From Klebsiella phage vB_KpnM_Tauntaun_ER47, in sequence record PP738783.1: a DNA stretch of 64,000 nt; one strand, written 5' to 3'. The position numbers and the translations under genes were made by a program. Below the pieces are notes generated by a model. It was not told the DNA's origin. It did not search any database and worked only from the letters and a program-made list of their open reading frames with translations. Positions within the stretch are counted from its first letter, which is position 1. Each line of letters starts with the position of its first letter. Positions 30,114-40,537 of the stretch are shown piece by piece.

Positions 30114-30683
30114 ATGAACTTAAATCACGAATGTTTAAAAGATTTGAGCGATGGTAACGAGATTGGTAACGTTATTTTTCTTGATATCGATGGCGTTCTA
30201 AATAATATGCGGTGCATGAAATTTGGTGAACATATGGACATCGAATGCGCACGACACTTACGCCGGATAGTGAATCACGCTAATTGTGATATCGTCATTT
30301 CCTCTACGTGGAGAATCGGCAACAGTACCCATAATCTACGTGAAATATTTTATCCGTGGGGATTGTATCGGATCATTGGTAAAACTTGCACTAACTTCCC
30401 TCATAGCACTGGAATGCGTGGTGATGAAATCAAGGCATGGATCGATACTTTCGGATGTAAAAACTATCTCATTCTTGATGATGACACCGATATGCTTTCT
30501 TCACAAAAAGATCATTTTATTAACACTGATGGGTTTGTTGGGTTGACCGAAGAACAATCCACTTATGCGATCCGTAACATTTTCGGGGTTACTACTCCGT
30601 TTTGTCCTGAATGCAATGGGTATGGACGTGTTAACGGCTACGACAAATGCGGAACGTGTAACGGTAAAATACTCCGGCTATAA
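30114..30683 (+). CDS. HAD-superfamily phosphatase fused to a C-terminal DnaJ-type CxxCxGxG zinc finger.
   Basis: FLDIDGVLNN (HAD motif I DxDGx), ISSTWR (motif II), K...LILDDD (motifs III/IV). C-terminus CPECNGYGRVNGYDKCGTCNGK. Confidence 0.6.
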   Translation: MNLNHECLKDLSDGNEIGNVIFLDIDGVLNNMRCMKFGEHMDIECARHLRRIVNHANCDIVISSTWRIGNSTHNLREIFYPWGLYRIIGKTCTNFPHSTGMRGDEIKAWIDTFGCKNYLILDDDTDMLSSQKDHFINTDGFVGLTEEQSTYAIRNIFGVTTPFCPECNGYGRVNGYDKCGTCNGKILRL

Positions 30684-30686
30684 ATA
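30679..30686 (+). promoter_or_regulatory. Late promoter TATAAATA upstream of the Ig-like domain gene.
   Basis: Exact octamer 25 nt upstream of ATG 30712. Confidence 0.55.
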
Positions 30687-30711
30687 CCAATAAACATAAG
30701 AGGTTAAATTT

Positions 30712-31245
30712 ATGGCAATTCCTTCTGTAACAATTAGCGCCAACAAAAACGAACTTTTGATTGGCGAAACTTTGACCTTAGAGGTTGAAACTACTGAACT
30801 AGATCCGGGTGATGTGTTTCTGGCCTATCGTTGGCAAAAAGATGGTGTAGATATTCCAGGCGCAACCGCCGATACTTACACAACTACGGTTGACGGTACA
30901 ACTGCTGGTGATTATACCCTGATCTTAAAACACGGTGCTGATGAAGAATCAGCAACAGAAACCACGTCAGATACAATCACCGTGACAACTTATTCTGATG
31001 ATCTCGTTTCTAAATGGACGGTTCACCCGATTCCGTGGCGTGATACCAGCTTTACCCCGATCGGTTATTGGGTACTTGATGAAATTCTGTATCAGAAAGC
31101 ACAGGGTAAAGATTGGAAAACTGATTATGCTGATTACAAGTATAGTGAGGAAGTACAAACGATCCTGAAAGCGTTCATGGAAAACGGTGAATGTGAGATC
31201 CAGGATTCACGAAACGGCTATATTCATAAAATGAGTGAAATCTAA
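30712..31245 (+). CDS. Late protein with an N-terminal Ig-like (Hoc/BIG-type) domain and a C-terminal WTVHPIPWR domain. Candidate virion decoration protein.
   Basis: TLEVETTELDPGDVFLAYRWQKDGVDIPGATADTYTTTVDGTTAGDYTLILKHG fits the I-set Ig pattern also present at the Wac C-terminus. The C-terminal ~80 aa are paralogous to the next ORF. Confidence 0.55.
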   Translation: MAIPSVTISANKNELLIGETLTLEVETTELDPGDVFLAYRWQKDGVDIPGATADTYTTTVDGTTAGDYTLILKHGADEESATETTSDTITVTTYSDDLVSKWTVHPIPWRDTSFTPIGYWVLDEILYQKAQGKDWKTDYADYKYSEEVQTILKAFMENGECEIQDSRNGYIHKMSEI

Positions 31246-31255
31246 GAGGCTTTAA

Positions 31256-31531
31256 ATGGCAACTGAAAAATGGACTACGGTTCATCCTATTCCGTGGAGA
31301 AATACCAGTTTTACATATCTTCCATACTGGCTATACGATATTATCGTTGATGCTTTTGAGAAAGGCGACGACTGGCGCGATTATGCGGAAGAAAAATATA
31401 AATTAGAGTTTGATACTCTGAAAGAGGCGTTTGAAGATTATGGTGATATTCATGTAATCGAATCTCGTAATGGTAAACTGGTTAGTCTGTTGTCATTGAC
31501 TCCTGCTCCTGAACCAGATCCTGACCAATAA
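31256..31531 (+). CDS. Paralogue of the C-terminal domain of the preceding protein (WTxVHPIPWRxTSF...DW.DYA..KY...LK.AFE..G...SRNG).
   Basis: About 45% identity to residues ~98-177 of the 30712 ORF. Followed by a Pro-rich tail. Confidence 0.55.
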   Translation: MATEKWTTVHPIPWRNTSFTYLPYWLYDIIVDAFEKGDDWRDYAEEKYKLEFDTLKEAFEDYGDIHVIESRNGKLVSLLSLTPAPEPDPDQ

Positions 31532-31544
31532 AATAAGGCAAACA

Positions 31545-38279: not shown

Positions 38280-38356
38280 AAAGGTGTTGACGGGGGTTGG
38301 TTATAGTAGTATTCTAACTCCCGTAGACAAGACACTAACTCAGAAGGATAAACATC

Positions 38357-38617
38357 ATGGAAATCGTAATGAAAGCAACTTATGCTGGATATTGCCTGGA
38401 AGCAAAAGGTTTTGCTAACAATGGCAAAGGCTTACGGGCCAATGTTGAAGCAATGCTGGATGAATTACATGCAATGTACGAATATGACAACGTAGCGGGT
38501 AGCGTTCTTATCCAGGCGTTGGAAGTCAATGGTGTTGATTGTGCTGGTTGGTGGGATGCTTACATTGACTACAACGATAACCGGGTTTACCTGTTGAGCA
38601 ACAAAGATTATTTCTAA
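38357..38617 (+). CDS. Hypothetical protein (86 aa).
   Basis: ORF preceded by a candidate promoter TTGACG (38288) and an imperfect hairpin in the 5' UTR. Confidence 0.45.
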   Translation: MEIVMKATYAGYCLEAKGFANNGKGLRANVEAMLDELHAMYEYDNVAGSVLIQALEVNGVDCAGWWDAYIDYNDNRVYLLSNKDYF

Positions 38618-38626
38618 GGAACCACT

Positions 38627-39076
38627 ATGAGCGATGAAGCTGAGGCTTTAGAAGATTGGGCTGATTTTGATGACGAAGAAGACGGGGAATATTTCTGCGT
38701 TAATCGTGGTGCTTATAAAGACCGTTTAGAACTCCGTAAACTTTTATCGGGTTCCTCTCAAATATCAGGATCCAAACGAAAAAGTAGTAAACAAAAAGTT
38801 CAGTATAGTGATGGTTCTGTACGTGATGAAACTGTTGTTGCTGAATTCCGTGGTCGGGTTATCACAAAAGAAAGACAAATTGATGTAAAGAACTTGTATG
38901 AAGTGGCTAAGGCTGCTAAAATAGGTTCTGTGATTGTTTGCCCTGTGTGCAAAGAAAAACACACAAAGACAACGTATCACAAAGTTTTCTGTTCGAATGG
39001 CAGAAAAACCAGTAAGGATTGTAAGTCTAAATATCACAATACAATCCATCCCGAACGACTGGATCGGGTATTTTAA
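38627..39076 (+). CDS. Hypothetical protein with an acidic N-terminus and a C-terminal zinc-ribbon (CPVC...C..C).
   Basis: VIVCPVCKEKH...FCSNGRKTSKDCKSKYH. Confidence 0.5.
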   Translation: MSDEAEALEDWADFDDEEDGEYFCVNRGAYKDRLELRKLLSGSSQISGSKRKSSKQKVQYSDGSVRDETVVAEFRGRVITKERQIDVKNLYEVAKAAKIGSVIVCPVCKEKHTKTTYHKVFCSNGRKTSKDCKSKYHNTIHPERLDRVF

Positions 39077-39103
39077 AATAAACCTAAAACGTGGAGTACG
39101 TTT

Positions 39104-40537
39104 ATGAACAACAAAACTTTCGAAGAACTGAACAGCATTATCACTTCCGTAGATTCCTATAAGGTTTCTCACTGGTCGCAATATCCAACTGGCTCCGAAG
39201 AGGCGCTGTTTTATATTGAATCTCGTGGTGGTAAATTTGATCAAGTAGTTACGGCTGGCTGTAACCGCCTTGCGCAAATCCTATCACGTCCGGTGACTAT
39301 GGAAAACGTAGATTTTGCTAATCGGTTGTACAAAATGCACTTTGGGCGCGAAATCTTCAACTACAAAGGTTGGAAAGAAATTGCTGAACTGGGTTACATC
39401 CCTCTTGAATTCAGAGCGATTCCGGAAGGAACTCCAGTAGCGGTTAAAAATCCGGTTGCAACTTTCCACGCTGGGAAAAATGCGCTGTGGTTAGCAGGAC
39501 ACGTAGAAACCCTGGCGATCAGGGGAGTATGGTTCCCTTCAACCGTAGCAACTCTATCCCGCGAATGTAAAAAAGTGTTGAAGAAATATCTCAAGAAAAC
39601 CTCTGATCTCGAAGGCGAAGCATTTGATATGGTGTTACGTACCCGTTTGCATGACTTCGGCGCACGTGGAACTTCTTCTGCTGAATCCGCTGGTATTGGT
39701 GGCCTCGCGCACCTGTATAACTTCCTCGGTACTGATACCGTAGAAGCGCTGATTATGGCTATCTCTCTGTTTGAAGATTGTCAGAAAGCGTTTGATGATG
39801 GTGAAATGGCGGCTGGTATTTCAATTCCTGCTCGCGAACATTCCACTACCGTTTCTTACGGCAAAGAAAACGAAGACCTTGCGTACAAAAACAGTATTGA
39901 GATCTTCGGCGAAGGGATGTATGCATGTGTGTATGATTCCTGGGATTTTAAAGCGGCGGTTCGCCGTATCGCAGAATATAAAGATTCGATTCTTTCTAAG
40001 GGCGGTACTCTGGTAGTTCGTCCGGATTCTGGTGATATGGTAGACAATATCATGTACGCTCTTGAAGAACTGGGCCGTATCTTTGGCTATACAGTGAACT
40101 CAAAAGGGTATAAAGTACTACACCCAGCAGTAAGGATCATTCAAGGCGATGAAATTCATGGCCCTGAAACAATCAATCGGGTGTTAAACTGGATGGAGTC
40201 TAACCGTTGGGCGTCTGAAAACATCGCGTTTGGTATGGGCGGCGGATTGCTTCAAGAAGTTACCCGCGACACTCAAAAATATGCGATGAAAATGTGCGCA
40301 ATCAAAATTAACGGTGTGTGGACTGGTGTGTATAAATGTCCAAAAGGCGCTGAATGGAAAAAGAGTAAAAAAGGGTTGTTAATGACTATCACTGATGGTG
40401 TTAACTTTAAAACCATTGATACTCTGGAACAGAAAGTGCCGGAAGGCTGGAAAGATGCTATGATCACATACTATGTCAACGGAAAGATTACTGCCCGTGA
40501 CACTTTAGAGGAAATTAGGAACCGTGCCGGGATTTAG
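39104..40537 (+). CDS. nadV: Nicotinamide phosphoribosyltransferase (NAMPT/NadV).
   Basis: 477 aa. LVVRPDSGD, GYKVLHPAVRIIQGDEIHG and GMGGGLLQ signatures of the NAPRTase type II / NAMPT family. Known in KVP40-like and some other T4-like phages. Confidence 0.85.
   Translation: MNNKTFEELNSIITSVDSYKVSHWSQYPTGSEEALFYIESRGGKFDQVVTAGCNRLAQILSRPVTMENVDFANRLYKMHFGREIFNYKGWKEIAELGYIPLEFRAIPEGTPVAVKNPVATFHAGKNALWLAGHVETLAIRGVWFPSTVATLSRECKKVLKKYLKKTSDLEGEAFDMVLRTRLHDFGARGTSSAESAGIGGLAHLYNFLGTDTVEALIMAISLFEDCQKAFDDGEMAAGISIPAREHSTTVSYGKENEDLAYKNSIEIFGEGMYACVYDSWDFKAAVRRIAEYKDSILSKGGTLVVRPDSGDMVDNIMYALEELGRIFGYTVNSKGYKVLHPAVRIIQGDEIHGPETINRVLNWMESNRWASENIAFGMGGGLLQEVTRDTQKYAMKMCAIKINGVWTGVYKCPKGAEWKKSKKGLLMTITDGVNFKTIDTLEQKVPEGWKDAMITYYVNGKITARDTLEEIRNRAGI

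Follow-up and report, generated by a model that had tools for sequence, protein, structure and literature searches.

NadV of Klebsiella phage vB_KpnM_Tauntaun_ER47 very probably belongs to the catalogued NARP2 pathway and lies in a mosaic accessory segment with a predicted p0068-like ADP-ribosyltransferase

The NAD+ pathway NARP2 is defined by a Nampt and an NMN adenylyltransferase (Nmnat) encoded anywhere in the same phage genome, and 94% of the phages with a KVP40-type Nampt carry the Nmnat (Osterman et al., 2024). Synthesis of NAD+ from nicotinamide, phosphoribosyl pyrophosphate (PRPP), and ATP, together with rescue from an NAD+-depleting defence, has been reported for the KVP40 enzymes only (Osterman et al., 2024). 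NadV has also been described as paired with NadM (Iyer et al., 2022), and NAD salvage is encoded by all Klebsiella Slopekviruses (PMC11845039, 2025). Here we analyzed nadV and its neighbouring accessory genes in Klebsiella phage vB_KpnM_Tauntaun_ER47 (PP738783.1), which occupy positions 30114–40537 of a 64,000-nucleotide stretch of DNA, hereafter the window. An earlier note, made from the sequence alone, had read these genes as one island for NAD+ and nucleotide chemistry. It is highly probable that they instead form a mosaic of independent cassettes, in which NadV and a distant NMN adenylyltransferase/Nudix protein (NatV) constitute NARP2 and a small ADP-ribosyltransferase (ART) is independent of that pathway.

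NadV was assigned from its domain composition, as listed below.

39104–40537, plus strand: NadV/Nampt, with Pfam NAMPT_N (PF18127; E value, 2.6e-22) and NAPRTase (PF04095; E value, 6.9e-41) domains.

The protein also scored 463.7 bits on the NCBIfam model NF006629 (cut-off, 405), and the NadV/NAMPT assignment of the earlier note was confirmed by these matches. The combination of PF18127 and PF04095 is that of the KVP40-type Nampt of NARP2. NadV would convert nicotinamide and PRPP to nicotinamide mononucleotide (NMN).

The central argument of the earlier note was that no NMN adenylyltransferase with an HxGH motif is visible, so that either an unassigned protein supplies this step or NadV feeds a different reaction. 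The observation holds for the window, in which neither tblastn with NatV nor motif scans revealed an NMN adenylyltransferase or Nudix gene, but not for the genome. The segment 30000–40600 is 99.4% identical over its full length of 10.6 kb to Klebsiella phage Miro (Straboviridae, Slopekvirus), where window position w corresponds approximately to Miro position w + 112,068. Miro encodes, at 76662–77723 on the minus strand and approximately 73 kb from nadV, a 353-aa protein with Pfam CTP_transf_like and NUDIX domains. This protein matched the NCBIfam models of bifunctional NMN adenylyltransferase/Nudix proteins over its full length (best, NF003786; E value, 4.9e-78), and its motifs GRFQPFHYGH and SSTNLR and its Nudix box are intact. 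It is labelled 'bifunctional protein NMN adenylyltransferase/NUDIX hydrolase' in GenBank KT001919. The central inference fails because a conventional NMN adenylyltransferase/Nudix protein is encoded elsewhere in the genome, which the earlier note had itself named as an outcome that would overturn it. In T4-like genomes the genes for NadV and its partner often lie apart, and thus a 64-kb window cannot establish the absence of the partner.

NadV and NatV were also found to co-occur in the phages that share this DNA. Co-occurrence was approximated from record counts, and the matches at 60–80% identity came from RB43/RB16/Lw1-type phages and from Cronobacter, Citrobacter, and Enterobacter relatives.

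Slopekvirus records: region DNA in 112 (at least 95% identity), NadV in 112 (at least 80%), NatV in 111 (at least 95%).
RB43/RB16/Lw1-type clade records: region DNA in a further 64 (60–80% identity), NadV in 67 (60–80%), NatV in 64 (60–80%).

The one-record gap between NadV and NatV may be due to the partial 59.6-kb record KMI10. The Nampt proteins of KT001919 (Miro), KP15, and KP27 were previously listed as 'Nmnat-associated' (Osterman et al., 2024, Table S2). The NadV of this phage is the Nampt of an already catalogued NARP2, and the pairing is published. NadV very probably serves to counter NAD+ depletion, and the partner of the NadM/NatV type, some 73 kb off, would complete the rebuilding of NAD+. 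The suggestion of an anti-NAD-depletion module was sound in this respect, but not as to novelty. The statement that NadV with NatV is the only described phage pathway containing NadV is likewise outdated, as NARP1 uses a NadV homologue (Osterman et al., 2024).

Like the NARP2 of Vibrio phage KVP40 (Lee et al., 2017; Osterman et al., 2024), the predicted pathway combines a Nampt composed of NAMPT_N and NAPRTase domains with a bifunctional NMN adenylyltransferase/Nudix protein of the same genome. In contrast to KVP40, the two Slopekvirus genes lie approximately 73 kb apart and do not form one expressed unit, and the enzymes are known from sequence. The Slopekvirus NatV is only 38–39% identical to the homologues of large (~250 kb) Vibrio phages. 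NARP3 (PnuC and NadR) was considered and rejected, as no NadR signal was found in the nine island proteins scanned or among the weak matches of NatV. The HAD phosphatases of the stretch were also ruled out as the 'Adpp' (ADPR-1''-phosphate phosphatase) of the extended NARP1, since Adpp is a Macro-domain protein. Other genes of an NAD+/ADP-ribose and RNA-repair network (locus L003) lie far from this stretch in Miro (NC_041981.1; 73812–74819, 81366–81839, and 98409–98816). Their products are a nucleotidyltransferase of the RlaP type, a Macro-domain protein that weakly matched ThsA_Macro, and a stand-alone Nudix protein.

The explanation favoured in the earlier note was a novel NAD+ reconstitution or anti-depletion island, in which a P-loop kinase, the 291-aa protein orf291, or a SLOG protein of the stretch replaces the missing NMN adenylyltransferase. 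The emptiness of the window in this respect, the nucleotidyltransferase-type (polymerase palm) fold of orf291, and the uncharacterised state of the kinase speak for it. However, the canonical enzyme is present elsewhere and co-occurs with NadV in a pathway catalogued as NARP2, and the kinase, orf291, and SLOG families occur mostly without NadV nearby. The NadR/RNK models (including TIGR01526) gave no NCBIfam match to the kinase at E values up to 0.01. This explanation is scarcely credible on such evidence. A route to NAD+ lacking an NMN adenylyltransferase would have counted in the phage–bacterium NAD+ arms race, but it was not upheld.

The stretch contains 18 genes and is the variable uvsW-to-dam segment of Slopekvirus, a hyperplastic region built as a mosaic of independent cassettes and not one functional module. 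Three cassettes are separate from one another: a kinase gene followed by an NT5C gene; orf291 followed by the ART gene and a gene for a small membrane protein; and the RNA ligase 2 (Rnl2) gene followed by the SLOG gene. In phages other than those of the Slopekvirus and RB43-type clades, genes for the ART, kinase, and SLOG protein were found in other contexts without NadV, which argues against a single coherent island. All of the open reading frames (ORFs) named in the earlier note were recovered in place. It had proposed profile searches as a check, with assignment to unrelated families counting against its reading; most of its family guesses were borne out. Its description of these genes as absent from T4 was incorrect, as two Hoc-like genes, an Srd-like gene, and Rnl2 (with the T4_Rnl2_C domain) have homologues there. 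An Inh-like gene lies directly upstream of the stretch, and the order is T4-like.

The closest described relatives of the ART are the 'p0068-like' proteins, a family of the HY-[EDQ] clade that is among the commonest viral ARTs (Iyer, Burroughs, Anantharaman & Aravind, 2022, PMC9503650). The HY-[EDQ] clade, including p0068, was described as modifying macromolecules and as distinct from the KptA clade. In phages of Escherichia, Shigella, and Salmonella, a p0068-like ART and Dmd were predicted to form a toxin–antitoxin pair, possibly acting on RNA (PMC9503650). No experimentally characterised p0068-like member was found in the literature looked at. The corresponding genes in the window are as follows.

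34472–34789, plus strand: minimal ART of 105 aa, p0068-like family, assigned by homology to ZZ1 p0068 and by invariant residues.
34786–34962, plus strand: 58-aa protein with two hydrophobic segments (maximum Kyte–Doolittle 19-residue mean, 2.19), the start of which overlaps the ART stop by 4 nt.

The ART shares 74% identity over 90% of the query with p0068 of Acinetobacter phage ZZ1 (ZZ1p0068, P0049; E value, 1.4e-42). A total of 169 close homologues with 64–99% identity were found in phages of Klebsiella, Enterobacter, Escherichia, Serratia, Pantoea, Erwinia, Proteus, Providencia, and Acinetobacter, and a few of them are already labelled 'ADP-ribosyl transferase.' In the family alignment, H15-G16-(S/T)17, F49, Y60, and E103 were invariant or nearly so. 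By our own mapping, this pattern fits the H-Y/F-E type, and both the ART fold and the H-Y/F-E catalytic constellation were found. We infer that the protein belongs to the published p0068-like family, the name of which appears to be taken from the ZZ1 locus tag; the Dmd adjacency in coliphages supports this derivation. Lower-ranked matches included diphtheria toxin, PARPs, DarT, and RES toxins. A Foldseek search gave nothing significant (best E value, 0.73), and its only geometrically sensible matches were ART toxins. Overall, an ART activity that uses NAD+ is plausible for the 105-aa protein.

The earlier note had called this protein Arr-like. The ART part of that description stands, whereas the resemblance to Arr is one of fold only, and the protein does not belong with the rifampin ADP-ribosyltransferase Arr (Arr-ms). 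At the sequence level, neither models nor chains of Arr or Tpt1 matched the ART, and the Pfam model PTS_2-RNA did not match it. When aligned to a 179-residue Tpt1 chain, only 73 residues were covered, which we read as the NAD+-binding lobe. Tpt1/KptA proteins have two lobes, and the N-terminal RNA-binding lobe, which bears most of the catalytic Arg-His-Arg-Arg tetrad, is missing from the 105-aa ART.

The distribution of the ART differed from that of NARP2. It was detected in 609 phage records, including 216 of Escherichia, 115 of Klebsiella, 68 of Acinetobacter, and 62 of Aeromonas, whereas NatV was detected in only 10 Escherichia and fewer than 8 Acinetobacter records. NadV lay within 10 kb in 10 of 56 IMG/VR loci with the ART. 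The gene order of the window was seen in nine of them (L004–L011 and L021, from Slopekvirus and RB43-type phages), and the tenth (L030) had a NadV of only 27% identity in a different context. At least four ART gene contexts, unrelated to one another, were observed; in approximately 19 loci the ART gene directly follows the gene 41 helicase and precedes the gene 61 primase (uvsX-40-41-ART...61). The ART is not linked to NadV, and most ART-bearing phage records are without NARP2.

These counts also bear on the proposal that NadV/NatV chiefly feeds NAD+ to phage ARTs, the ART and NadV being functionally coupled in this clade. The ART gene and nadV lie 4.3 kb apart in the same direction, the interval contains no predicted terminator, their order is kept in Slopekvirus and RB43-type phages, and the use of salvaged NAD+ for ADP-ribosylation has been a matter of speculation (PMC11845039). 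The excess of ART over NatV records in Escherichia and Acinetobacter and the 46 of 56 ART loci that have no NadV within 10 kb argue the other way. T4, in addition, runs three ARTs without any NadV. We consider the NAD+-supply proposal improbable. In our reading, the ART gene is a mobile accessory of T4-like phages, and its product would function without reliance on NARP2; its probable role is the ADP-ribosylation, early in infection, of a host macromolecule or a nucleic acid. The p0068-like ART is of moderate interest, being strongly conserved (64–99% identity in at least eight host genera), abundant, and still uncharacterised.

The gene that follows the ART sets this locus apart from those of the coliphages. 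The ART of this phage resembles the p0068-like family in its ART fold, H-G-S/T motif, and C-terminal Glu, and the homologues in Escherichia phages abut dmd. A Dmd-like ORF was seen 3' of the ART in at least the JS98-type loci inspected, where it presumably resembles T4 Dmd. In contrast, no Dmd-like gene lies directly downstream of the ART in the window, where the unrelated hydrophobic 58-aa ORF is found instead, with the PolB-like 291-aa protein upstream. The 58-aa protein and the Dmd-like ORF at the same position in JS98-type coliphages fell into distinct families (F32 and F23). Should the ART prove toxic, the 58-aa protein would be a candidate for an immunity or partner factor. The genes that follow the ART in phages of Acinetobacter, Aeromonas, and Proteus are unrelated.

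The 291-aa protein upstream of the ART was assigned by a profile match and motifs.

33564–34439, plus strand: orf291, 291 aa, stand-alone family-B DNA-polymerase-like palm/fingers protein.

Motifs resembling A, B, and C of family-B polymerases were found (MTFNAMYGN, KHLINSMFY, and IDTIAYYGD). In the alignment, K136, D188, and H203 were invariant and N140 nearly so; K136 and N140, read as the nucleotide-contacting Lys and Asn, belong to motif B and D188, a catalytic-site Asp, to the motif C-like segment, and the Asp of motif A is replaced by Thr or Ser in most members. An 18-sequence profile matched archaeal PolBs (E value, 6e-4), with polymerases making up 47 of 48 among the matches listed. 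The aligned part extended from the fingers and motif B as far as motif C, and motif A was covered by a second, weak segment. A full family B DNA polymerase, with both catalytic aspartates and exonuclease and thumb domains, was not found in orf291. The family is small (17 representatives of 223–318 aa in an exhaustive search) and appears, tentatively, to be undescribed and possibly new; it is tangential to the NAD+ question. orf291 lies 28–106 nt upstream of the ART gene in 11 of the 56 ART loci, which form two clades with orf291 proteins of 27% identity. This recurrence raises a further reading, in which orf291, the ART, and the 58-aa protein form an early-expressed and undescribed cassette for host takeover or counter-defence, the degenerate polymerase binding a nucleotide or nucleic acid, or presenting it, for modification by the ART with NAD+, and NARP2 keeping that NAD+ available in Slopekviruses. 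We regard this reading as unlikely.

Downstream of these genes, the Rnl2 and SLOG genes form a second pair, which overlaps by 11 nt.

36171–37190, plus strand: RNA ligase 2, homologue of T4 rnlB, with Pfam RNA_ligase (E value, 5.3e-19) and T4_Rnl2_C (E value, 7.1e-15).
37180–37761, plus strand: DprA-like SLOG protein of 193 aa with IGSR, GGAPGMD, and GGT motifs, matching phrog_768 'DprA-like' (E value, 4e-60).

A seven-sequence SLOG profile matched Helicobacter pylori DprA (E value, 3e-6) and a LOG enzyme (E value, 4.9e-3). Together with phrog_768 and the invariant motifs, these matches agree with the earlier description as a DprA/LOG-type SLOG protein. The protein shares the Rossmannoid motifs IGSR, GGAxGxD, and GGT with the DprA/Smf and LOG branches. 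It fell short of DprA proper, with 22 bits on Pfam DNA_processg_A against a cut-off of 29.6 (residues 10–54 only) and 18.9 on TIGR00732 against 191. Unlike DprA, it is a single 193-aa domain in which a SAM or winged-helix domain is not evident, its matches lie mainly in the first ~50 residues, and it is coupled to Rnl2 rather than to competence or recombination genes. The adjacency of Rnl2 and SLOG genes holds down to 43–46% (Rnl2) and 36–39% (SLOG) identity (loci L014, L070, L071, and L114), and none of approximately 66 more distant SLOG homologues had Rnl2 nearby. In a PADLOC scan of ten island proteins, the only matches were weak ones of the SLOG protein to ShosA (1.5e-5) and PsyrA (2.6e-4), through a common GGxxGxD region.

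The kinase and three HAD phosphatases account for the remaining enzymes that the earlier note had linked to nucleotide chemistry.

30114–30683, plus strand: HAD_SAK_2 phosphatase (PF18143, residues 20–148; E value, 5.4e-29; phrog_1818, 5.5e-53) with a C-terminal CxxCxGxG zinc finger.
31545–32063, plus strand: NT5C-type HAD nucleotidase, paralogue a, with the motif DFDDT (phrog_2643; E value, 2.5e-50; no Pfam match).
32096–32560, minus strand: NT5C-type HAD nucleotidase, paralogue b, with the motif DMDGV (Pfam NT5C, PF06941, 26.0 bits against 24.8; phrog_2643, 1.5e-57).
32610–33449, minus strand: Zeta-toxin-family P-loop kinase (Pfam PF06414; E value, 2.8e-7; 30.6 bits against a cut-off of 22.3).

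The Walker A motif GGAGSGKG and residues D57, D59, D133, R178, and R180 of the kinase were invariant in the alignment, and nearly all of its 1612 homologues were already assigned to PF06414. Searches of PDB sequences with the single sequence and with a 13-sequence profile found nothing. Of the NadR-RNK/zeta-toxin-like topology proposed for this protein, the Zeta_toxin half was supported by the above-cut-off Pfam match and the NadR/RNK half was not. It resembles Zeta toxins in this match and in its conserved Walker A and Asp/Arg residues, but differs in that no epsilon-type antitoxin is evident. The two NT5C proteins share 32% identity over 75 aa and the DxDxT/V motif; both matched phrog_2643 at 1e-50 or better, in line with their description as paralogues, although only paralogue b exceeded the Pfam cut-off. 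The HAD_SAK_2 protein has an intact DIDGV nucleophile motif, and a DnaJ_CXXCXGXG match (2.3e-4, below cut-off) agrees with the proposed fusion of a HAD phosphatase to a zinc finger.

The kinase and NT5C_b genes, NT5C_b second, form a minus-strand pair amid plus-strand genes. Among 80 IMG/VR kinase loci, 16 have an NT5C gene 53–120 nt after the kinase and on its strand, as does locus L142. Seven of the 16 loci are distant, with NT5C proteins of 29–53% identity, and the arrangement was seen in a 148-kb T4-like contig. Loci with this pair include L142, L153–L157, L162, and L168; in Aeromonas phage CC2, the kinase lies near a thymidine kinase instead. The pair resembles T4 Pnkp in joining a kinase to a HAD phosphatase but differs in that the genes are separate and the phosphatase is an NT5C nucleotidase. 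A bona fide Pnkp is also encoded by Miro, together with Rnl1, at 44.6–47.9 kb. The recurrence of the kinase–NT5C and Rnl2–DprA-like SLOG pairs across distant phages is of moderate interest. Each pair, as well as the HAD_SAK_2 protein, may be a separate unit for nucleotide or RNA-end processing.

A joint toolkit for RNA repair or against anticodon nucleases could also be proposed from these genes, in which HAD_SAK_2 and the kinase/NT5C pair heal RNA ends, a Tpt1-like ART uses NAD+ to remove or modify terminal phosphates, Rnl2 seals, and the SLOG protein assists. We consider this doubtful, since the genes are interrupted by unrelated ones and are not found as a group in phages beyond this clade, the members of the NT5C family are nucleotidases, and the ART, with 73 aligned residues of its 105 aa, is without the RNA-binding lobe of Tpt1. 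Moreover, p0068 was placed among the macromolecule modifiers in the HY-[EDQ] clade rather than with KptA (Iyer et al., 2022, PMC9503650).

Several observations weigh against the reading of the stretch as independent cassettes with a conventional NARP2. The run of twelve genes that begins with orf291 and ends with nadV has a single direction; its junctions are short or overlapping, and no convincing terminator interrupts it. The ART, Rnl2, SLOG, and NadV genes may thus be co-transcribed, and a loose functional link among them is conceivable. NadV and/or Macro genes lie within 4 kb of the SLOG gene in 6 of the ~66 distant SLOG loci, echoing the SLOG–Macro associations that have been described (Iyer et al., 2022), and the SLOG protein may have a part in an NAD+/ADP-ribose network. 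NatV scored 262.8 against the NCBIfam equivalog cut-off of 397 and is a diverged member, the activity of which is predicted in this clade. Finally, the NatV of the phage's own genome, beyond the 64 kb, is expected from relatives of 95–100% identity.

The genes from orf291 to nadV may constitute one early or middle unit, which is usual in T4 accessory regions and does not on its own imply a shared function. Predicted signals at either end of this unit are listed below.

33482–33511, plus strand: sigma-70-like promoter (TTGACA, 18-nt spacer, TATGGT) in the 114-nt divergent gap ahead of orf291, a consensus match with a predicted function.
40583–40605, plus strand: strong terminator-like hairpin (9-bp stem with six GC pairs, TTTTT), 46 nt past the nadV stop.

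By our own reading, a MotA-box-like TGCTTTC overlaps the sigma-70-like promoter. The hairpin probably ends the unit. It lies inside the annotated GTG-start orf100 (40524–40826, plus strand), indicating that either the start of orf100 was mis-called or the hairpin is read through. The dam ORF that follows (40823–41674, plus strand; 283 aa) has an uncertain true start, the start of the Miro methyltransferase corresponding to window position 40948 (241 aa).

The remaining features of the stretch are as follows.

30679–30686, plus strand: T4-type late promoter motif TATAAATA, 26 nt before the first hoc-like gene.
30712–31245 and 31256–31531, plus strand: two Hoc-like Ig-fold head decoration genes ('T4 Hoc-like' in the Miro annotation; weak Ig_3/Big_2 matches).
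32065–32095, no strand assigned: terminator-like hairpin between the convergent genes of NT5C_a (plus) and NT5C_b (minus), where the Miro annotation also has a terminator.
35643–36167, plus strand: Srd-like gene ('decoy of host sigma70') with HNH-endonuclease-like similarity and a T4 homologue (phrog_4592, 1.9e-73; phrog_1400 Srd, 8e-13; Miro annotation).

The Hoc-like genes are late structural genes and encode neither NAD nor nucleotide enzymes. The motif TATAAATA occurs 10 times in the window against 4.1 matches expected. If it works as a promoter, it would place late structural genes among early accessory genes.

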